DNA of 62,184 nt, the filler included. It is 7 parts of 7 records of this genome, joined end to end, with 100 filler letters (N's around TTAATTAATTAA, not from the genome) between each part and the next. Parts side by side here need not be neighbours in the genome. Positions count along the whole stretch, not along the records: positions 24,194 to 35,544 come from SRR31147125_58457; 6 more parts are not named here. One strand, written 5' to 3'. Of this stretch, positions 24,194 through 35,644 are shown piece by piece. The position numbers and the translations under genes are program-made. How positions within the stretch are numbered: position 1 is the first letter of the stretch; every line of letters begins with the position of its first letter. Under the pieces are notes generated by a model. That model made no database searches. It was not told where the DNA came from and saw nothing but the letters and a program-made list of their open reading frames with translations.

Positions 24194-24457
24194 AACATCC
24201 TGGAACATGCCCTGATCATCTGCCGCGAGGCGGCCATCCACCCGGATCACCTGCCCGATTATGTCAGACAGACCGCGCCGGTCAGCCGGAAATCCCAACC
24301 GCCAATCTTTTCGGCAATATCCCCGACCCCGGAACACCGGCGCATCCTGGCGGCCCTGGAGAAAACCGGCGGCCATCGCCGCAAGGCGGCGCGGGAACTG
24401 GGCATGGAGCGCACCACGTTGTGGCGCAAGATGAAAAAGTACCGTATTCAATTGTGA
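24194..24457 (+). CDS. Sigma-54-dependent Fis-family activator, 3' fragment
   Basis: Manual translation NILEHALIICREAAIHPDHLPDY...ILAALEKTGGHRRKAARELGMERTTLWRKMKKYRIQL* matches the end of an AAA+ domain plus Fis HTH. Confidence 0.88.
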   Translation, partial: NILEHALIICREAAIHPDHLPDYVRQTAPVSRKSQPPIFSAISPTPEHRRILAALEKTGGHRRKAARELGMERTTLWRKMKKYRIQL

Positions 24458-24491
24458 CCTCGGTCACACTATTTATGTGAGTCCCGTCACT
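24453..24491. promoter_or_regulatory. Two tandem TGTGA-N6-TCAC(A/T) palindromic binding sites
   Basis: TGTGACCTCGGTCACA at 24453-24468 and TGTGAGTCCCGTCACT at 24476-24491, 23 bp apart, upstream of the GRE operon. Confidence 0.65.
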
Positions 24492-24607
24492 GCGCAAAGC
24501 GACAATCTCTGCTCATAGTGCAACCATTCCAAGCTGGCACCGATAAAGGATAGGCGCCATCGCATCCTATTCGGTATGGACCGCCCCCCTATGCATAGGG
24601 AGAAGAA

Positions 24608-26302
24608 ATGGACATCCCTCACCTTAACATTGCAAATTTTCAGTCGCCCGATTCCGCCTCGGCGGCGACCTTGGCCAAGGACCTGGAGACGTTGCTGAAC
24701 GCTGACTACGAGGGTGACATGTTCGCCCTTCTGGCCGGCTACCAGCGCATCCTGGCCGACAACCGTCAACGTCGCCATTGGGCCGTAATCCACCACAAAC
24801 TGGAGACCTTGTTCAAGTGCGGGACCTATTGTCCCCTCGACGGCCCCATGATCGGCGTCTCCGTGTCGATCCGGGACAGTGACTACTTCCGGGAAACGGC
24901 GAGGCGGTTGGGCCGCACGCGCTCCAGCATCGCCAATATCGAATGGATGGCCAGCGCCTGGAACATGACCTTTGCCGACACCGGGCTCTGGATGGGCAAG
25001 ACCTTCGAGCCGGTGGACCGCCAGGTGGTGGACCACAAGACCGGCGGTGATGCGGCCACCATGGCCGGCTACGATCCTGAGACCAGCCGCATCGGCCGCA
25101 ACTACTTCCGCGATCCAGCCCGGCCCGATCCGCTCCAGCGCCTGGGCCTGCCCGTGCTCACCCCCCTGTGGGGGCTGAAACCACGCCCCATGACAACGGA
25201 TGCCGAAGGGTTCGACGGACGCCTGACCGAAGACAACCTGGCCAGGGAAATGAAGATCCCCTACACCATGACCGGCGGCATTTTTCTCGCCGCCCCAGGC
25301 CGGTCGGTGGTCCCGGAGATGAACGGCAAGGCCGTCTACCAGCTTAACTACCGCTGGCCACGCCTGGACCCCACCTATCCCCTGACCCGGCTCATCGACG
25401 AGCTGGTCCAGATTGCCGAGGGCATCTACCTGGGCCAACTGGTGTTTGCCACCCGGCATTACAGCCTGGGCAGCCCGCGCCTGCCGGATCGTCCCGGCAT
25501 GTCGGCCAGCTCCCTGGGCAAGGCTTACACGGGTGAGGCGGACAGGTCGCTGGACACGCTTTTCGATCGCTTCATTGGCGATCGGGCCGTCGATTACGGC
25601 TATCAGAACAACGGCTTTTTTCTCATGCTGGATCCGGACCATGCCGAAAAAATCTACGCCGACGATGCCTTTCCCCAATTGCGCCCCCGCAGAGGGGAAA
25701 GCGGCTTTGTCGAGCTGGGCGACGATGCCCGGGTCCGCACCGCCGCAGCGGCCAAGCCGCCGGGACGCGGGGCCGTGATCACGGACTGGACCAACGGCTG
25801 GCGGCAGCACGCACCACTCGCGGAGAAGTTCACCACCTTCCTCCTGGAGCCGGATCTGCCGCCCACCGCCGTCGATGACGTCCAGGCCATGCGCCGGGAG
25901 GGCGAATCGATCCTACAGATGCTCCAGCGCATCAGCCGGGAAACCGCCGCGCGCACCGCCGGCGATGACCGCCTGCGCCATTTCGACCGCTTCCACCGCC
26001 TGTTCCGCGCCGGCGTGGCCCCAACCGTGGTGGACATGGTCTGGCACAGCATCGGCAAATACATCTTCCCCTGGGCCGGCAAATCCTTCGAGCGCATCGG
26101 CGGCCGCAAGCTGAGCATGTTCCTCGACGAGAGCGTTGATCTAACCGAGCGCTACCCACAACGCGTCCGGGAGCTAAAAACCCACCTGGCCAGCGCACCG
26201 CACTACGCCCTGGTCAAAAAGGCCGCCCGGCGCCACGGCCCCCCCGGGGGTCTACGCGCCGCACCTGGCCGGCGGCAGTTGGGACCGGGGGATGAGCCAT
26301 AA
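24608..26302 (+). CDS. Hypothetical protein with an internally repeated W-x-GK-x-F domain; 3' end apparently truncated
   Basis: GGGAG RBS and GC-rich coding pattern. Motifs LWMGKTF, YQLNY, LIDELVQIAEGIYLGQ and a second PWAGKSF. The C-terminus degenerates at a C7/G5 run and an AT-rich insert. Confidence 0.75.
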   Translation: MDIPHLNIANFQSPDSASAATLAKDLETLLNADYEGDMFALLAGYQRILADNRQRRHWAVIHHKLETLFKCGTYCPLDGPMIGVSVSIRDSDYFRETARRLGRTRSSIANIEWMASAWNMTFADTGLWMGKTFEPVDRQVVDHKTGGDAATMAGYDPETSRIGRNYFRDPARPDPLQRLGLPVLTPLWGLKPRPMTTDAEGFDGRLTEDNLAREMKIPYTMTGGIFLAAPGRSVVPEMNGKAVYQLNYRWPRLDPTYPLTRLIDELVQIAEGIYLGQLVFATRHYSLGSPRLPDRPGMSASSLGKAYTGEADRSLDTLFDRFIGDRAVDYGYQNNGFFLMLDPDHAEKIYADDAFPQLRPRRGESGFVELGDDARVRTAAAAKPPGRGAVITDWTNGWRQHAPLAEKFTTFLLEPDLPPTAVDDVQAMRREGESILQMLQRISRETAARTAGDDRLRHFDRFHRLFRAGVAPTVVDMVWHSIGKYIFPWAGKSFERIGGRKLSMFLDESVDLTERYPQRVRELKTHLASAPHYALVKKAARRHGPPGGLRAAPGRRQLGPGDEP

Positions 26303-26559
26303 ACCCCAATATTGCATAGTAAAGATTGATAAAAATCGCCAATTACCATGACCATCGAATATGAGACATACTGGCCACCATTTTTAGAATCAACCGACGG
26401 TTGCATTACAGGATTGGAGGCTTTTTCTTCATCTTTTTCCCCTTCGGGAACGCCGGAGGAGACCGGATCCGGCGTTGCCAAGGGATCGCGGTAGCGAGAT
26501 CACAGCTTCACCCTTGGCGCCTTGGCTCTGGCGCCCTCCGGCTCTTGCACCATTGGGGT
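26303..26559. mobile_element. Putative MITE/IS remnant with imperfect 14-bp terminal inverted repeats
   Basis: ACCCCAATATTGCA (26303-26316) and TGCACCATTGGGGT (26546-26559) are reverse complements at 12/14 positions. Abrupt GC drop at the left end. Confidence 0.4.
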
Positions 26560-26579
26560 AACTATCTAAGGAGGGAATC

Positions 26580-29054
26580 ATGCCCCAGATCACCCTAAAC
26601 GACATTGCCCTGAAAGACTTCACCCTGGACAATCTGCCCCGGCTGGCCGAACTGCGCCGCCTGTCGTTCGCGCGCAAGCCGGAGATATGCATCGAGCGGG
26701 CCCGCCACGTCACCGCCTATCTCAAGACGCGCGACAGGCCGGACGACGCCCCGGAGGTGCGCCAGGCCGGAAAAGTGGCCTATTTCCTGAAACGCAAGAC
26801 ACCGGTCTTCCACGACCGCAACCTTTTGGCCGGCAGCACCACCAGCAAAGCCCTGGGCGCGCCGCTGTTCCCCGAGTTCTTCGCCCTGACCCTGTGGCCG
26901 GAGCTGGACACGGTCGGCACCCGGGAAAAGAACCCGCAGAAACTAACCGCCGAGGAGGCGAGGGAACTCAACCTGGAGATTTTTCCCTTCTGGATGGACA
27001 AGAACGTCCTGGAACTGACCCGCCGCCAGGTGGGCAGCGATCGCCAGAGCCTCAAGCTTTTCGAAAGCCTGGTCTTCTTCATCGCCGCCAAGGCCGGCTG
27101 CATCTCCCATGCGGTCCCCACCTACGCCCCCATGCTGACCCACGGCCTTACCGGCCTGATCGACATGGCCGAAAGGATGCAAGCGGCAGCCACCGTACGC
27201 GCGGATAGCCAAGCCGCAGGTCAGGCCGATTTCTACCGCGCCGTGCGGATCGCCCTTAACGGCATCATCCGTTACGCCGAAAACATGGCCGACGCCGCTC
27301 TGGACATGGCCGAAATGACCGACGACCCGACGGTCAGGCAGGAATTTCGCGACATGGCGGCGGTCTGCCGGCGGGTGCCGGCCCAGCCGGCGACCACCTT
27401 CCGTGAGGCGCTCAACGCCGTCTGGATCTGCCAGGTGGGCATCCACGCCGAGAATATCAACATGGCCATGAGCCCCGGCCGCCTGGACCAGCTGCTCTAC
27501 CCCTACTACCGCGAGGACATGGACGCGGGACGATTGGACCTGGCCACGGCAATGGAATTGATCGGCTGCCTGTGGCTGAAGATCGCCGACAACGTCACCA
27601 TGGTGCCCGAGGCGTCGGAAGAGCTGTTCGGCGGCGCGGGCACCGTGCCGGCCATCACCCTGGGCGGCGTGGACGAGAACGGCGAGGATGCGGTCAACGA
27701 CCTGACCTACATCATGCTGCGGGCCACCGAACTGCTCGCTATCCGCGACCCCAACGTCAACGCCCGCTTTGATGTGGACAAGAACAGCCAGGCGTACTGC
27801 CGTCGGGTATGCGAGGTGATTCTAAACACCAAGGCGGTGCCGGCTTTCTTCAACGACCAGGCCAACATCGCGGCACTGATGGGCCAGGGCGAGGCCATCG
27901 CGCACGCCCGTGACTATGCGGTGATCGGCTGCGTGGAGCTGGCCAGCAGCGGCCGGGACTACCCGGCCTCCAGCTCCATCATGCTCAACCTGGCCGCGCC
28001 ATTGGAGATGGCTCTTTTTGGCGGCAAACGGCCCATCACCGGCGACGAGCAAATCGGCCCGGCCACCGCCGATGCGGCCACCCTGACCAGTTTCGAGGCC
28101 TTCTGGGAGGTATTCAAGACCCAGCTGGACTGGCTCATCGAACAAGCCATCGAGATCAACGAGGCCATGGGCGCCGTGCACCAGCAGATGATGCCCTCGC
28201 CCCTGCTCTCCGCCTTTTTCGAGGGGCCCATGCAGTCGGGCCGCGACCTGATCCGGGGCGGATCGACCTACAACTCCTCCGGTGCCACGCACATCGCCTT
28301 TGCCGACGTGGTCGACTCGCTCAACGCCATCGAACAGGCGGTGTTCATCGACAAGAAAATCGATTTCGCCACCCTCGTGGCCTTGGTGAAAAATGATTTC
28401 GCCGGCCAGGAGGGAGAGAAGATCCGCCTCTATCTGAAAAACAGGACGCCCAAGTACGGCACCGAAAACCCCATCGCGCGCAAGAATGCCCAAAATCTTA
28501 TCGGCCATCTCTTTGCGGTCTACCAGTCCCACATCAACTACCGCGGCGGCCCCTACCGGCCGGCCTACTGGACCATGACCAACCACGCCGGACTGGGCGG
28601 CATCACCGGTGCCCTGCCCCACGGCCGCAAGGCCGGCCGGCTGTTTGCCAGCGGGATCACCCCGGTCTCGGGCGCCGCGCCGGAGTTGACCGCCTGCCTC
28701 AATGCCGTGGCCGAACTGGGCGGTAAAAATGTGCCGGGCTGCTGGGCCCTCAATATCAAGTACCGCCCCGAGGAAGACACGGCCGCCATGACCAGGCGCT
28801 TCGCCCAGACCATCGAGGCCTATTTCCGCGCCGGGGGCCAACAGGTGCAGTTCAACATCATGACCTACGAAATGCTCATGGACGCCAAGCGGCACCCGGA
28901 AAAATATCCCGAGCTGATGGTGCGGGTGTCCGGCTACTCGGCCTATTTCAAGGATCTCAACGAGATGATGAAAAAAGAGCTGATCACGCGTGCCATGTAT
29001 GATCTGGCAAACGGCCGGGCCGTTCCCTGCCCGGATTGGGAAGAAGGGAGGTAA
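26580..29054 (+). CDS. Glycyl radical enzyme (PFL2/eliminase-like), uncharacterised class
   Basis: Gly loop LMVRVSGYSAYF, Cys loop VIGCVE, MSPGRLDQLLYPYY, ITLGG..G.DAVNDLT, QVQFNI; AAGGAGG RBS. Confidence 0.93.
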   Translation: MPQITLNDIALKDFTLDNLPRLAELRRLSFARKPEICIERARHVTAYLKTRDRPDDAPEVRQAGKVAYFLKRKTPVFHDRNLLAGSTTSKALGAPLFPEFFALTLWPELDTVGTREKNPQKLTAEEARELNLEIFPFWMDKNVLELTRRQVGSDRQSLKLFESLVFFIAAKAGCISHAVPTYAPMLTHGLTGLIDMAERMQAAATVRADSQAAGQADFYRAVRIALNGIIRYAENMADAALDMAEMTDDPTVRQEFRDMAAVCRRVPAQPATTFREALNAVWICQVGIHAENINMAMSPGRLDQLLYPYYREDMDAGRLDLATAMELIGCLWLKIADNVTMVPEASEELFGGAGTVPAITLGGVDENGEDAVNDLTYIMLRATELLAIRDPNVNARFDVDKNSQAYCRRVCEVILNTKAVPAFFNDQANIAALMGQGEAIAHARDYAVIGCVELASSGRDYPASSSIMLNLAAPLEMALFGGKRPITGDEQIGPATADAATLTSFEAFWEVFKTQLDWLIEQAIEINEAMGAVHQQMMPSPLLSAFFEGPMQSGRDLIRGGSTYNSSGATHIAFADVVDSLNAIEQAVFIDKKIDFATLVALVKNDFAGQEGEKIRLYLKNRTPKYGTENPIARKNAQNLIGHLFAVYQSHINYRGGPYRPAYWTMTNHAGLGGITGALPHGRKAGRLFASGITPVSGAAPELTACLNAVAELGGKNVPGCWALNIKYRPEEDTAAMTRRFAQTIEAYFRAGGQQVQFNIMTYEMLMDAKRHPEKYPELMVRVSGYSAYFKDLNEMMKKELITRAMYDLANGRAVPCPDWEEGR

Positions 29055-29056
29055 GC

Positions 29057-29497
29057 ATGCTGGACCTGATTACCAACGCAGCCCAGAAACGACTGTGGGC
29101 GAACTTCAAGGACGCGTTCTCGTCCCAGGTGGCGGAGGATTTCCTGGAGACGCTGCTGAACCTGATGAAGATCGTTTTCGTGATCAACCCCGACTATCGC
29201 CGCAACATCGAGAGTTTCAAGGGGCGCTACCAGTTCCTCGGCAAGGACGAGCGGCTCAAGGTGGGTGTGATCTTCGGCGGCGGCCGCATGGCGGTAGCGG
29301 ACGAGAAGATCGAGGATCCCGACATCACCATCGCCTTTCGCGACGGCCGGACGCTGCTCGACTTCATCTTCTCGCCGCGCCAGGACATCCTGGGGGCCAT
29401 GTTGCGCCACGACGTGGAGACCACGGGCAACCTGAACTACCTATACAAGTTCGGGTACATGGCCAAACAGCTGCAGCTTATGATGCCGCAACTGTGA
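29057..29497 (+). CDS. SCP2 (sterol carrier protein-2)-like small protein
   Basis: GGAGG RBS overlaps the GRE stop. Pattern RYQF..VIFGGGRMAV..EDPDITIAFRD..LL..DILGAML..VETTGNL.YL.KF resembles the SCP2 fold. Confidence 0.7.
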   Translation: MLDLITNAAQKRLWANFKDAFSSQVAEDFLETLLNLMKIVFVINPDYRRNIESFKGRYQFLGKDERLKVGVIFGGGRMAVADEKIEDPDITIAFRDGRTLLDFIFSPRQDILGAMLRHDVETTGNLNYLYKFGYMAKQLQLMMPQL

Positions 29498-30396
29498 AAA
29501 CGGCCCTGATCGGCGACATCGGCCGCTACGCGCTGCACGACGGCCCCGGCATGCGCACCACGGTGTTTTTCAAGGGCTGTACCTTACACTGCCCCTGGTG
29601 CCACAACCCGGAGTACATCGCCGCCCAGGCCGAGATCGCCTGCCATCCGGAGCGCTGCATCGGCTGCGGCGACTGCCGGGAAACCTGCCTGGAGGGGGCC
29701 GTGAGCGTCGACCCGGTGGTCCAAATCGATCGCCAGCGCTGCACCGGCTGCGGCCGGTGTACCGCCGTCTGTCCGGCCAGGGCCCTCGATAGGGTGGGCC
29801 GGGAATACGAAACGGAAGCACTAATCGAGATCCTGTTGCGCGACCGCCGGTTTTACGAGGCCTCCAACGGCGGGGTGACCCTCTCCGGCGGCGAGGCCAC
29901 CGGCCAGATGGGATTCTGTGGCGACCTGCTCGAACGCCTGAAACAGGAAGGAATCCACACGGCCATCGAGACCAGCGGGTTTTTCGTCTGGGAAAGGTTT
30001 CAAAGGATCTGCCTGCCACACCTGGACCTGATCCTGTGGGACCTGAAACTCGCCGATCCGGACCGTCACCGGCAGGTCGTCGGCGTGGACAACGGGCCGA
30101 TCCTGTCCAATCTGAAGCGGTTGCTGAAAAAAATCCCCGATCGCGTCATCGTGCGCGTCCCCCTGATCCCGGGCTACACGGCGGACCGTAAAAATCTCAT
30201 GCAGATCGCCGACCTGCTGCTGCATGGGCACCCCGCCCGCCGCTGCAGCCTCCTGCCCTATCATCCCATGGGGCGGGGCAAGGCCGAAACAATCGGCCGA
30301 TCAACGGATGCGACACTGCCACGGACACCGCTGGATGCAAAGACCCTGTCGCAGTGCCGGCAGTATTTCAACGCTTTCGAAATCGTCGATCCATGA
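29494..30396 (+). CDS. Glycyl-radical enzyme activating enzyme (radical SAM with ferredoxin insert)
   Basis: HDGPGMRTTVFFKGCTLHCPWCHNPE, CIGCGDC..C and CTGCGRC..CP, GGVTLSGGE, LLPYH. GTG start overlaps the upstream TGA. Confidence 0.93.
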   Translation: MKTALIGDIGRYALHDGPGMRTTVFFKGCTLHCPWCHNPEYIAAQAEIACHPERCIGCGDCRETCLEGAVSVDPVVQIDRQRCTGCGRCTAVCPARALDRVGREYETEALIEILLRDRRFYEASNGGVTLSGGEATGQMGFCGDLLERLKQEGIHTAIETSGFFVWERFQRICLPHLDLILWDLKLADPDRHRQVVGVDNGPILSNLKRLLKKIPDRVIVRVPLIPGYTADRKNLMQIADLLLHGHPARRCSLLPYHPMGRGKAETIGRSTDATLPRTPLDAKTLSQCRQYFNAFEIVDP

Positions 30397-30427
30397 CAAT
30401 TGACAGCATGCAAAAAGGAGCAAGACC

Positions 30428-31486
30428 ATGCAAATCGATTTCCATCACGCCACCACCTACGTCGCGGCCCGCCTGGCCGGCTTCGCCCATGCCGAGGCGG
30501 ATATTGTCGCCCATGCGGCCCAGTATGTGGACGACGCCACCAGCAGCGGATTGATCAACTTCGACAAGGATCAGCTTTATTTGCGGATCAGTTCGGCCCA
30601 CAAGATGATCGATACGCGCAACACCAGGAAACTGAAAAACCATCTGGTTTGGATACCGTTTCATTTTCTTCCGGGTAACGATGGCTTGGGCCAGGGCCTG
30701 AATCCCATCGGCACCTTCGTCAACAAGCTGGTCTGCAGACCCGACAGCCCCATCGCCCAGCTGATGGTCCGACAGGCCATCCTCGACCGCAAACGGCCCT
30801 ACGGGTTGCATCGCCTGGGAGTGACCATGCACGTGTATGCCGATACCTGGGCCCACCAGGGATTCGCCGGCGTGCGGCACAAAATCAACGAAGTCGAAGA
30901 TGCCAAGGAGACATCGAAATCGGGTGTCTTTTCCTCCGGCCTGAAGAGATTCGTCAAGGATATTCTCGACGATGCCATCCCGCCCCTGGGCCATGGCCGG
31001 GCGACGGTTTTTCCGGATATGCCCTTTCTCTCCTGGCAATACACCAACGGCAACAAGCAGATCATCCAGCGTGACAACACCGATCAGTTCTGCCAGGCGG
31101 CGGATCAAATGTGCCGTGCAATGCAGCGCTATGCCCTGGGCGATCCGTTTGCCGACACCAGCGGTATCGGTGCCAAAGACATGGCGAAGATCCGCAAACG
31201 GTTCGCCACGTTAAGGGAAAAGGATGGTAAAAAGCGGCATGCCGCGTGGCTCAGGGCCATCGCTGACGGGGCCTTCAGTTTCGGGAAGCAAAAGGTTTCC
31301 TATCCGGGCAAGGGCCCCGGTTCGTGGAAGGAGCAAGCGTTAGGCACCAGCGCGGACCAGCCCAGATACAAGTGGACGCCGTCCTTCATGGACAGCAACT
31401 GGAAGTATTTCCACGACGCCCTGCAGGCCCACCGTTTTTTCGTGATTCACGATCTATTACCAAGGTTCGGTATCTGCGCGGCCTGA
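30428..31486 (+). CDS. DUF6765-family protein (Zn-dependent phospholipase C/P1-nuclease-like motifs)
   Basis: MQIDFHHATTY..AR.AGF, AQYVDD, WIPFHFLPGN, LGVTMHVYADTWAHQGFAG, LGHG; AAGGAG RBS. Confidence 0.75.
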   Translation: MQIDFHHATTYVAARLAGFAHAEADIVAHAAQYVDDATSSGLINFDKDQLYLRISSAHKMIDTRNTRKLKNHLVWIPFHFLPGNDGLGQGLNPIGTFVNKLVCRPDSPIAQLMVRQAILDRKRPYGLHRLGVTMHVYADTWAHQGFAGVRHKINEVEDAKETSKSGVFSSGLKRFVKDILDDAIPPLGHGRATVFPDMPFLSWQYTNGNKQIIQRDNTDQFCQAADQMCRAMQRYALGDPFADTSGIGAKDMAKIRKRFATLREKDGKKRHAAWLRAIADGAFSFGKQKVSYPGKGPGSWKEQALGTSADQPRYKWTPSFMDSNWKYFHDALQAHRFFVIHDLLPRFGICAA

Positions 31487-31984: not shown

Positions 31985-32494
31985 ATGAGAAAGGAAGTGA
32001 TGAAAAAAGTAAGTGGACGAGTGCAAAAAGCGAATTCATACCTGGACAAAGAGTACAATCTCGGTGGTCAGCTTGAATGGTACGATAAGAAAGCGGTATT
32101 CAACAAATCCTGGCATATGCGATTGGGGCTGATCATCATTGCATCCGGCGCGGCGACATCGGTTGTGCAGCTATGGTCCCCCACACCGGAAGGTGTTCAC
32201 TGGAGCGCATGGCTATCCGCGGTTCTTGGAGCGGTTGTGATTGTCGCCAAGGGCATAGACAGCCTTTGGAAATTTGATGAGAACTGGTCCACCTATCGTC
32301 AGGCGGCCGAAATGATAAAACGTGAAAGACGCCTTTATGTCAATTCGATCGGCCCCTACCGACCATGTCCGGATGAGGACGGCGCTTTTGAATTGTTGGC
32401 AAAAAGAATAGAGCAAATTATCGCAACCGAAGAAAATATTTTCTGGAAGGACAAATCGGTGGCAGGTGATAATTCACATAAAACCAACGATTAA
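31985..32494 (+). CDS. DUF4231 / SLATT-family two-TM protein
   Basis: QLEWYDKKA..NK, two hydrophobic helices, ENWSTYRQAAEMIKRERRLY...GPY, RIEQII..E. The start may be ATG 31981 with a homopolymer slip. Confidence 0.85.
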   Translation: MRKEVMKKVSGRVQKANSYLDKEYNLGGQLEWYDKKAVFNKSWHMRLGLIIIASGAATSVVQLWSPTPEGVHWSAWLSAVLGAVVIVAKGIDSLWKFDENWSTYRQAAEMIKRERRLYVNSIGPYRPCPDEDGAFELLAKRIEQIIATEENIFWKDKSVAGDNSHKTND

Positions 32495-32505
32495 GGAGAA
32501 ACGTC

Positions 32506-33915
32506 ATGTCATTGAAGCCACTTTGTTTCGTGGTCATGCCTTTTGGACAGAAGCCGGACCCCGGTGGGCGTTCCGACATCGATTTCGACAACATCTACGA
32601 CAACGCCATCAAGCCGGGCATAATGGATAGCGGCATGGAGCCAATCCGCGCCGATGCGGAACGGACCGGGGGCATCATTCACAAACCCATGTTCGAAAGG
32701 CTTTTGTTATGCGACTATGTCCTCGCGGATTTGACCGCCGCCAATCCGAATGTTTTTTACGAGCTGGGTGTTCGTCACACCGCCCGGCCGGCCACGACAC
32801 TGACCATTTTTGCGAAACAACAGATTATTCCCTTCGATGTGAACTTCCTGCGTTCGATGCCCTATGACATTGGTGAGGACAACGCCTTTGGCGACCAGGA
32901 AGCGCATGCACTTCGCGAGGCAGTTGCCTCGACGCTTAAGGCGCTTAAGCAAGCGTCTTCAAAAACGGCCGCCGTTGACAGCCCGCTATTCCAATTGGTC
33001 ACGGATTGGAAACCGGGAGACATCGCGCACATCAAGACCGACGTATTCAGGGACCAGGTTCGGCTCAACGAGGAATTGAAGCAACGTATGGCAGCCATCC
33101 GCGCGGAAGCGAATATTGTAGAAAAAAAGGCGGTGGCCATTAAGAACCTTCAGGATTTCAGCCGGGAATTTGAAGACCTCGATGTGTTGGATGCCGGGAC
33201 CATAATCGATCTGTTCCTCTCGTTCCGAGCATGTGAGGACTGGGAAGGCATGATATCGCTATACAACAGGATGCCGGAGCTGCTGAAACGGCTGATTCTT
33301 GTGCGGGAGCAGCTCGGCTTTGCTTACAACCGACGCGCCGGCAAAACGGAAAACCCCGCTGACCGGGCAGAGGCATTGAGGATTCTTGTAGATGTAGAGA
33401 AACAGCAGGGGCCGAGCTCGGAAACATGCGGGCTGATTGGCAGAATATACAAAGACAATTTTACGGAGGCGCTGTCAAAAAAAGAAAATGAATTTGTAGC
33501 GCGCGGTCACCTCAACAAAAGTATCGACGCCTATCTTCGCGGTTTCATGGCCGACATCAGGGATGCCTACCCTGGCATCAACGCGGTAACCTTGCTCGAT
33601 GTGCGGGGAGATGAAAAGTCGCTGAACCAAAAAGAAAGGCTATTGCCTGTCGTGAGGTTTGCCGTTGAAAGACGACTGGGCGATCAGCCGGATTACTGGG
33701 ATCATGCAACCATGCTCGAATTATCGGTGCTGGAAAACGACATCGATACGGCCGAGGCACACCTCGCCAATGCCCTGGGCAGCGTAAGAGAACCCTGGGA
33801 GCCTAAGACCACGGCCAACAACCTGCGCATGATCGAGAGGGCGCGAAAAGAACGCGGGACTGACACCTCATGGCTGCTTAAGGTTATCGAGGTACTTGAT
33901 GCGAAGCATGCATAG
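32506..33915 (+). CDS. DUF4071/TRAF-binding-domain protein: N-terminal nucleoside deoxyribosyltransferase/hydrolase-like domain plus TPR-like region
   Basis: CFVVMPFG, IRAD, ADLTAANPNVFYELGVRH, IPFDV. Helical C-terminus with EQLGFAYNRR, ETCGLIGRIYKD, YPGINAVTL, DYWDHATMLEL, WEPKTTANNL. AAGGAG RBS. Confidence 0.85.
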   Translation: MSLKPLCFVVMPFGQKPDPGGRSDIDFDNIYDNAIKPGIMDSGMEPIRADAERTGGIIHKPMFERLLLCDYVLADLTAANPNVFYELGVRHTARPATTLTIFAKQQIIPFDVNFLRSMPYDIGEDNAFGDQEAHALREAVASTLKALKQASSKTAAVDSPLFQLVTDWKPGDIAHIKTDVFRDQVRLNEELKQRMAAIRAEANIVEKKAVAIKNLQDFSREFEDLDVLDAGTIIDLFLSFRACEDWEGMISLYNRMPELLKRLILVREQLGFAYNRRAGKTENPADRAEALRILVDVEKQQGPSSETCGLIGRIYKDNFTEALSKKENEFVARGHLNKSIDAYLRGFMADIRDAYPGINAVTLLDVRGDEKSLNQKERLLPVVRFAVERRLGDQPDYWDHATMLELSVLENDIDTAEAHLANALGSVREPWEPKTTANNLRMIERARKERGTDTSWLLKVIEVLDAKHA

Positions 33916-35103: not shown

Positions 35104-35544
35104 ATGATCAAAGAAACACAAGTCCCGGAGGAAGTGTCCAAACACCCCGCATGGCACCGCTTGGAAAGACAGCGCGGATGGTATTCCGAAGCGAGTGCCA
35201 AGAACAAGAAATATTACCATCTGATAAAGCTGTGCCAGATTATCACGGCAGGTCTTATCCCTGTAATCACCCTGATTGATTTTTCGATCACGAAATATAT
35301 CGTGGCTTTGTTTGGTGCTGTCATCGCGGCGTTGGAGGGCGTTCAGCATCTGTATCAGTTTCACGCCCTCTGGTTTGAGTACAGATCGACCAGCGAGCAA
35401 TTGAAACATGAGAAGTATCTGTTCCTCGCCATGAGTGGGCCATACCGGGGCCTGGATCGGAAAGAGGCGCTGCTTCTCCTTTCGGAGCGTATCGAGGAAC
35501 ATATTTCCAAAGAACATGCGAAATGGATCGATATGTCCAAAAAA
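35104..35544 (+). CDS. DUF4231 / SLATT-family two-TM protein, 3'-truncated by contig edge
   Basis: RLERQRGWYSEASAKNKKYY, two TM segments, WFEYRSTSEQLKHEKYLF..GPY, ERIEEHISKEH..W. Confidence 0.9.
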
Positions 35545-35644
35545 NNNNNNNNNNNNNNNNNNNNNNNNNNNNNNNNNNNNNNNNNNNNTTAATTAATTAA
35601 NNNNNNNNNNNNNNNNNNNNNNNNNNNNNNNNNNNNNNNNNNNN
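35545..35644. other. Contig-joining spacer
   Basis: N block with TTAATTAATTAA. Confidence 0.98.

Follow-up and report, generated by a model that had tools for sequence, protein, structure and literature searches.

A glycyl radical enzyme and its lipid-type partners in sediment anaerobes suggest an undescribed, oxygen-free cutting of membrane lipids

On what substrate does a glycyl radical enzyme (GRE) act when it is encoded among proteins of lipid-handling type? The question is raised by five open reading frames (ORFs), all on the + strand, read within positions 24608-31486 of the DNA analysed here (the window: 62,184 nucleotides, made of contigs joined by N linkers at six joins) and lying on the contig SRR31147125_58457 (24194-35544). 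Besides the GRE they encode its activating enzyme (activase), a small SCP2-fold protein, a repeat protein predicted to form barrels and a DUF6765 protein (Table 1). To our knowledge, membrane lipids are not among the substrates of any characterised GRE, nor does any such enzyme work with a lipid carrier as its partner. A preliminary description of the locus had proposed a hydrophobic substrate delivered by the SCP2 protein. The pocket of the enzyme, its barrel partner and its lipid-hydrolase neighbours support a hydrophobic substrate, while its delivery by SCP2 is still something that we infer; because of the same three features, we favour a glycerolipid over a sterol. That the GRE acts on some lipid-like substrate appears very probable to us. 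The more precise reading which we prefer, that the system would be a radical C-O 1,2-eliminase acting on the backbone of a glycerolipid once the head group has been removed, is a serious possibility that falls a little short of probable. As far as sequences can tell, this GRE of sediment anaerobes and its partners suggest an oxygen-free cutting of membrane lipids which has not been described.

We compared 79 homologous loci from GTDB; 44 have at least 5 kb on both flanks and are called well-flanked below. Because the arrangement recurs in these 79 loci, it is far beyond chance. The closest relatives of the GRE (80-85% identity) come from Desulfobacterota-type genomes, and the cultured Desulforhopalus sp. 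IMCC35007 (L011) has all five genes.

Catalytic residues and pocket of the enzyme

The GRE matches PF02901 with 528 bits and PF01228 with 72 bits, and its Gly785, carried by the motif RVSGY, and its Cys451 align with Gly763 and Cys433 of glycerol dehydratase (GD). The Cys loop reads GCVE (Cys451-Val-Glu453); according to sections 5.6 and 5.7 of a 2026 review (PMC13450708), Cys-x-Glu on this loop defines the GRE 1,2-eliminases and isomerases, and section 5.6.1 describes the roles of His and Glu in the chemistry of GD. Fragments and frameshifted copies were removed by a filter on length and motifs, which left an alignment of 67 full-length homologues from the 79 loci. His177 (the equivalent of the acid His164 of GD), Cys451, Glu453 and Gly785 are invariant in 67 of 67, and the eliminase-type loop first noticed in this one sequence is present in all of these homologues. 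The pocket is another matter. All 67 homologues have Met295 in place of His281 of GD, Ala296 in place of Ser282, Ser465 in place of Asp447, Trp664 in place of Tyr640 and Met666 in place of Ser642, and 60 of them have Val356 in place of Tyr339. The numbering of GD was reproduced on the Clostridium butyricum protein, on which these positions were verified; we take Asp447, His281, Ser282, Tyr339 and Tyr640 to be binding residues of GD. The His and Glu which bear the chemistry are thus kept, while the residues presumably gripping the small triol have become apolar or small.

The preliminary description had placed the GRE outside the characterised classes, and so it stands: it joins no class in our tree, reaches no cut-off and has its substrate-binding residues replaced. 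It lies below the cut-off of every NCBIfam class (HypD, CutC, HpsG, HpfG, PflD, IAD, HPAD and PFL), the best score being 419 bits against 994-1150, and below that of TIGR01774 (550 against 678), and it shares 26-30% identity with the characterised eliminase and isomerase references. The tree (FastTree, rooted on PflB) contains 106 sequences. Besides the query and 10 members of the clade, these are 20 reference and genome GREs together with 75 representatives, each 760 residues or longer, taken among the first 95 of the 150 that were listed. The class references were annotated plasmid records and genome GREs labelled by NCBIfam; PFL2, IslA, HpsG and BSS were outside the tree. The clade of the GRE branches apart from GD, GrpM, HpfG, CutC, HypD, PflD and YbiW, and it sits inside a group rich in SCP2 fusions with a support of 0.948-1.0. 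We read it as an uncharacterised clade with the catalytic residues of an eliminase and, judging from the alignment, an apolar pocket.

The likeness to the B12-independent GD (DhaB1 of C. butyricum, PDB 1R8W/1R9D) and to the GRE propanediol dehydratase extends to the GRE fold as judged by sequence, the Gly loop, the Cys-x-Glu, the His and the activase with a ferredoxin insert, and the chemistry is probably the same radical 1,2-elimination as in GD. The activase of the locus has radical SAM and ferredoxin domains by Pfam and scores 300 bits on TIGR02494 (cut-off 174); a cognate activase is found in 41 of the 44 well-flanked loci. GD differs by an identity of 28%, by the six pocket residues listed above and by its separate branch. 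The partners differ as well, being an alcohol dehydrogenase or a microcompartment for GD and propanediol dehydratase, whereas they are SCP2, the barrel and DUF6765 here.

The best match among solved structures is PFL2 of Archaeoglobus fulgidus (AF1449, PDB 2F3O; 381 bits), which shares the His and the GCVE and whose function is still debated, in section 7 of PMC13450708, between a dehydratase and an alkyl-succinate synthase. PFL2 differs from the GRE in retaining the equivalents of Asp447 and Tyr640, in its length of 776 residues and in having no SCP2 domain. This match is one point in favour of a different reading. The substrate would be an amphiphile without glycerol that carries vicinal OH/OH or OH/NH2 groups, for instance a long-chain 1,2-diol, a sphingoid base, the side chain of a hopanepolyol or a hydroxysteroid; alternatively, the enzyme would activate a hydrocarbon, a role once suggested for PFL2 of Archaeoglobus. 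Such a reaction could use the same His/Cys/Glu set, SCP2 folds bind many types of lipid, and an EEP-family phosphoesterase stands beside DUF6765 in two loci. We nevertheless hold this reading to be highly improbable: PFL2 keeps the Asp and the Tyr which are replaced in this clade, the EEP protein has no sphingomyelinase match, BSS and MASS score 182-190 bits where PFL2 scores 381, and the small partner protein, with 0-3 Cys in 70 of 70 aligned sequences, has too few of them to be an Fe-S subunit.

One more residue has to be accounted for. Lys171, six residues before His177, is invariant in the clade (67 of 67) and present in 16 of 19 sister sequences, that is in most of the SCP2 superclade, and in 0 of 7 characterised references. 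It may bind an anion. The substrate would then be a lipid that keeps an anionic group anchored by this Lys (lysophosphatidic acid, alkyl-glycerol phosphate, the glycerol moiety of phosphatidylglycerol, or else a sulfonolipid or hydroxy fatty acid), the GRE would eliminate water, phosphate or phosphatidate, or sulfite, and DUF6765 would act later or in parallel. C-S lyases do anchor their anion, with Arg/Gln (PMC13450708, section 5.6.3), and no phospholipase was detected in 25 of the 32 loci devoid of DUF6765, many of which are short. Sulfite lyases (IslA, IseG, HpsG) anchor the sulfonate with two Arg and one Gln, however, where a single Lys is found here, and the HpsG model gives 413 bits on the GRE for a cut-off of 1000. 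We regard an anchored anionic lipid as unlikely.

The partner proteins

The small protein has 223 homologues, and none of the 120 matches listed carries a Pfam label. It matches no Pfam family at E 0.01, and a PDB profile search gave no SCP2 chain at E 10; the link to SCP2 is therefore seen through fold search only. When a model made from 70 homologues (pLDDT 78) was compared with 48,161 chains, the ten best were all SCP2 or SCP2-domain proteins (best Z 11.9, root-mean-square deviation (rmsd) 3.1 and 114 aligned residues, for UbiJ-SCP2), and Foldseek likewise returned SCP2 folds (E 3e-6). The SCP2 domain of UbiJ is thus the closest fold to the small protein, as Tcur_1030 and the lipocalins are to the barrel repeat described below, at identities of 12-16%. 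The gene adjoins that of the GRE in 73 of the 79 loci, the six misses being contig ends within 153 nt of the GRE. Moreover, among the 150 nearest GRE representatives, 18 carry a homologous domain as a fusion, one of these just at E 0.024. Five have it at the C-terminus, which keeps the order of the operon (P0122 for example, hhalign 99%), and 13 at the N-terminus; the profile also finds the domain in five GREs of about 1000 residues from two complete genomes. The check proposed earlier for the small protein thus came out in its favour: the protein is SCP2-like, and it is conserved beside homologous GREs. Since the domain occurs free, fused at the C-terminus and fused at the N-terminus, a physical partnership between the GRE and SCP2 is likely.

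The sister GREs of about 1000 residues with an N-terminal SCP2-like domain are 34-40% identical to our clade, join it at a node of support 0.948 and share Lys171, His177, Trp664 and His669. They differ in that SCP2 is fused and not free, in having Asn, Asp or Glu against Val at position 356, and in lacking Met295.

BSS, MASS and HPAD, too, have a gene for a small accessory protein next to that of the catalytic subunit, and the substrates of BSS and MASS are hydrophobic. In these three enzymes the small subunits are iron proteins of HiPIP or rubredoxin type (PMC13450708), iron-binding ones being the only GRE small subunits listed in section 4.2 of that review, which credits them with solubility and gating; here the partner has an SCP2 fold and no motif for a Cys cluster. 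One may then imagine a small substrate, polar or mildly hydrophobic, with SCP2 as a structural or gating subunit as in BSS and HPAD, the barrel and DUF6765 being unrelated or auxiliary. SCP2 domains are indeed also found in alkylsulfatases and acetyltransferases, where lipid carriage need not be their role, and DUF6765 is common in genomes without the GRE (32 of 191). A small substrate fits badly with the fusions at both termini, the apolar pocket, the exclusive presence of a second lipid-type fold and the several unrelated lipid hydrolases nearby. Nor does any microcompartment gene or conserved small-solute transporter occur among the recurrent neighbours of the homologous loci. We consider this explanation quite unlikely.

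Several observations concern the SCP2-GRE superclade at large. The cultured Desulfoluna limicola (L108-L111, L115) has four GREs with an N-terminal SCP2 domain and one clade member with no adjacent activase, and would be well suited as a model for the superclade as a whole. A gene of the secreted phospholipase C family, 2.4 kb from an SCP2-fused GRE of this species, was not counted, as another gene lies between. One GRE of 1095 residues (P0152) has an apparent activase fused at its N-terminus.

The barrel family has one or two copies of a unit of about 270 residues without any match to a Pfam family. The intact two-repeat form has about 820 residues, and single-repeat homologues exist. The repeat-domain protein which the preliminary description had placed upstream is present, as a damaged copy of the two-repeat form: the first repeat is intact, the second has an internal deletion of about 83 residues and the last 165 residues or so are missing. 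A public contig, perhaps from the same sample, agrees with ours over 24200-27688 apart from two homopolymers that have extra C's, one of them at 26238. Since this contig lacks the frameshift near 26240, the latter probably arose in assembly; the internal deletion and the truncation stand. An AT-rich segment (26300-26580) takes the place of the end of the gene, and the spacing between the barrel ORF and the GRE is 278 nt against about 90 nt in close homologues.

We predicted the fold on the single repeat of a homologue (L030, alignment of 51 rows) and not on the ORF present here. The model (pLDDT 92.8) best matches Tcur_1030 (Z 10.6, rmsd 3.1, 141 aligned), a protein with no described function in the literature searched; lipocalins follow at Z 5-6.5 and an rmsd of about 4, and lipocalins and other small barrels together span Z 5-8. 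The nearest named Atlas clusters, GXWXG/DUF4334 at 0.78-0.79, are a lead only. Among the 120 listed of 459 matches, the search for fusions of the barrel with an enzyme gave just unannotated proteins of 595-728 residues. The invariant polar residues of the barrel (Lys, Asn, Tyr, Arg and Asp) leave room for a role as an enzyme rather than a carrier.

The barrel gene was found in 48 of the 79 loci and in 31 of the 44 well-flanked ones, upstream or downstream of the GRE or on the opposite strand. We then counted it in 201 genomes of Desulfobacterota, 10 of which have a stand-alone SCP2 gene: it is present in 8 of these 10 and in 0 of the 191 others, one marginal match (E 8.6e-4) having been set aside, and six of the eight genes lie within a few kb of the system (Fisher p 8e-13, uncorrected for kinship). 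In 151 genomes of a second phylum (Nitrospirota), centred on a Nitrospirae metagenome-assembled genome, it is present in 3 of 5 genomes with the SCP2 gene and in 0 of 146 others. It was not found in 6 genomes that have only weaker, mostly fused-type, SCP2 matches. The barrel is a dedicated partner, found only in system-bearing genomes (8 of 8 in Desulfobacterota, 3 of 3 in Nitrospirota), with the proviso that the profiles were built from GRE-linked copies and may therefore miss distant free-standing relatives; free-standing clusters of barrel type do exist in other taxa in the Atlas. Three Smithella-type genomes (G248, in particular its contig C154, G252 and G253) have another barrel gene, a long one, and a DUF6765 gene at a distance from the examined GRE locus.

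The DUF6765 protein has a conserved start Met (Met1 in 47 of 48 members) and no signal peptide, and its His6, Asp35, His79, His135, Asp139, His143, His189 and Asp197 are invariant in 48 of 48. Their spacing is that of what we take to be the metal pattern of the phospholipase C/P1 nuclease superfamily (N-terminal residue, His, Asp, His, His-x3-Asp-x3-His, then a late His or acid), which can also be seen in the alignment of PF00882. PF00882 matches 4 of 26 DUF6765 members (best E 0.016), and a profile made from 17 PF00882 members recovers 4 true members first, followed by DUF6765 in 16 of the next 18 matches (E 0.017-0.42). PDB profile search gave chance matches only, and the ESM Atlas DUF6765 clusters only. 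This Zn-dependent superfamily is thus closest by motif and by weak profile scores, and DUF6765 is a probable cytoplasmic metal-dependent phosphodiesterase of phospholipase C/P1 nuclease type. It is present here and in 47 of the 79 loci, at varied positions and in two divergent subfamilies. As it is also frequent in genomes without the system (32 of 191 Desulfobacterota, 6 of 146 of the second phylum), it is a facultative partner, and not the fixed part of the operon for which it had been taken. Of the 32 loci without DUF6765, four (Smithella-type) show, upstream of the GRE, a gene of family PF00882 with a PDB match to phospholipase C (E 3.5e-4), and one has Lipase_3. Among 30 unbiased loci, 2 have patatins next to DUF6765; in L133 and L136 it is flanked by patatin-like phospholipases, and the SCP2 gene was not found in those genomes.

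The candidate reaction

The reaction which we prefer could run as follows. The activase would put the radical on Gly785, from which it would be relayed to Cys451, as homology supports. A phosphodiesterase (DUF6765, or elsewhere the PF00882 phospholipase C or a lipase) would expose the terminal CH2OH of a glycerolipid backbone, for which mono-acyl and mono- or di-alkyl glycerol are candidates. The barrel protein would bind or ferry the lipid upstream of the SCP2 step; the SCP2 protein, docked on the GRE, would grip the hydrocarbon chain and present the glycerol end. By analogy with GD, the thiyl radical would abstract H from the carbinol carbon while Glu453 deprotonates its OH, and His177 would protonate the oxygen of the next carbon, this group departing as water or alcohol. 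The product would be a lipid aldehyde (3-acyloxy- or 3-alkoxy-propanal), which may shed a fatty acid or alcohol and would pass to aldehyde oxidoreductases encoded elsewhere. The likely purpose would be the salvage of membrane lipids from dead biomass in anoxic sediments.

The E. coli isomerases YbiW and PflD give a precedent for a GRE that uses Cys-x-Glu to cut the C-O bond of an ether adjoining a carbinol (PMC13450708, section 5.7); they differ in their polar substrates, which are sugar-phosphate ring ethers, in an identity of 27-30% and in their pocket and branch. True ether cleavage by our GRE is to be considered with reserve, as an unlikely event. The same doubt applies to an anaerobic ether-lipid lyase pathway, in which dialkyl-glycerol lipids (bacterial or archaeol-type) would have their head group stripped by a phospholipase C-like enzyme and their core brought to the GRE by the barrel and SCP2 proteins, after which the GRE would expel the sn-2 alkoxy chain or give a 3-alkoxy-propanal that sheds the alcohol. 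Were this pathway real, sediment bacteria would break the ether bonds of membrane lipids without oxygen, by the first GRE with lipid-carrier subunits.

A number of results, in addition to Lys171 and to the SCP2 domains of other enzymes, weigh against a glycerolipid eliminase. As regards DUF6765, hhalign aligns it to PF00882 with a probability of 25% only, over 36 columns (P 8e-4), and a nuclease would be equally compatible with the metal motif. Its enrichment at genome level is not significant in Desulfobacterota (4 of 10 against 32 of 191, p 0.08), and in the second phylum (2 of 5 against 6 of 146) p is 0.02, or 0.18 without the centre genome. DUF6765 is found elsewhere in 3 of the 3 tested genomes with PF00882 beside the GRE, which shows that PF00882 is not a strict replacement. 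As regards the barrel, eight strands at Z 5-6.5 may be just a common arrangement. Proteases, peptidoglycan hydrolases and amylases also occur nearby, so the lipid hydrolases may just mark general hydrolase islands. There is no conserved gene for the processing of aldehydes or CoA among the 79 loci, which contain one AOR. Finally, in 8 loci of the nearest sister subclade, mostly short, neither the barrel nor DUF6765 was found; one of them has a FadL-type channel and one has two PAP2 phosphatases nearby.

The absence of conserved downstream catabolic genes could also be read in favour of biosynthesis or remodelling, a lipid of the cell's own membrane being dehydrated or deoxygenated to yield, for instance, an ether, a vinyl-ether or a deoxy lipid. 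The hosts include sulfate reducers, a group reported to contain alkyl ether lipids (PMC11150832), and 9 of 48 barrel ORFs have a lipobox, which would tie them to a membrane. The patchy distribution of the system (10 of 201 Desulfobacterota and 5 of 151 second-phylum genomes), its hydrolase neighbours and the fact that no lipid-synthesis gene recurs among the neighbours speak for the contrary, and we judge a biosynthetic role very unlikely.

In the full-text literature searched, which leaves supplements outside its scope, we found no report of a GRE with SCP2 (one unrelated match) and no paper naming DUF6765; the main text of PMC13450708 contains no word beginning with "sterol", "ether" or "phospholip". 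What is new here is a set of accessory proteins undescribed for GREs, among them a tandem barrel predicted to be lipocalin-like, and the phospholipase-C/P1-type metal motif of DUF6765, which give first functional leads for DUF6765 and for the unnamed barrel family and leave few enough candidate substrates for assays. If a glycerolipid is the substrate, a lipid branch is added to GRE chemistry, with candidate genes for the anaerobic attack on glycerolipid, possibly ether-lipid, backbones and with a bearing on the recycling of carbon in sediments and on how well lipid biomarkers survive there.

The locus and its surroundings

The coordinates are collected in Table 1. The arrangement reported in the preliminary description, with a tight coupling of the genes for the GRE, SCP2 and the activase, was found again in every detail: the ribosome-binding site within the end of the GRE, which would couple translation of the SCP2 gene to that of the GRE, the overlap of the GTG of the activase with the TGA of the SCP2 gene (GTGA, 29494-29497), and the gap of 31 nt between the stop of the activase and the start of DUF6765.

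Table 1. Features of the system, in positions of the window.
Feature	Position	Strand	Evidence
Tandem-repeat beta-barrel protein (predicted), 564 aa	24608-26302	+	homology, fold predicted on L030 repeat, co-occurrence
Glycyl radical enzyme, 824 aa, eliminase-type: His177, Cys451, Glu453, Gly785, Arg804	26580-29054	+	PF02901 and PF01228, alignment
Ribosome-binding site GGAGG of the SCP2 gene, in the final codons of the GRE	29047-29051	+	sequence
SCP2-fold protein, 146 aa	29057-29497	+	predicted-fold match, locus conservation, homology to fused domains
GRE activating enzyme, 300 aa from GTG, radical SAM with two-cluster ferredoxin insert	29494-30396	+	Pfam, TIGR02494
DUF6765 protein (PF20551), 352 aa, facultative partner	30428-31486	+	Pfam, motif

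Promoters and terminators scanned over the locus are near chance level (5 against 2.6 and 6 against 7.6); at that level, a separate promoter for the GRE could be provided by a weak sigma70-like site at 26361-26390, within the AT-rich segment.

Further neighbours were scanned (91 of 124, plus two). They include one Lipase_3, one PLD-like protein, two EEP phosphoesterases and one AOR, the rest being proteases, cell-wall hydrolases and housekeeping genes; a C1 peptidase (10 loci), a PG-binding protein, DUF2278, an amylase and an amidase recur. A GxSxG protein directly upstream of the GRE in two loci (L016, L018) resembles a lipase by this motif only, has no Pfam or PDB match and was not counted. 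In a few loci (L054:15721-16308, L065, L069, L007, L207) the operon contains or adjoins a gene for a membrane protein of about 195 residues that belongs to no Pfam family. A locus labelled Candidatus Methanogaster and one from Deltaproteobacteria (L030 and L032) have identical matches at identical coordinates, so the former is probably due to misbinning and not an archaeal copy.

The GC content of the contigs ranges from about 0.31 to 0.63 across the window, and for this reason the source may be a mixed bin. A fragment at the edge of the contig (24194-24455), without a Pfam match at 1e-5, resembles what we take to be the C-terminal helix-turn-helix of a sigma54-type activator. Downstream, the SLATT and TPR-S genes were rejected as parts of the system, being present in 0 of the 79 homologous loci; these SLATT (DUF4231) genes flank a TPR-S/MAP3K_TRAF_bd protein (31985-33915 and 35104-35592) and probably form with it a conflict or defence module.

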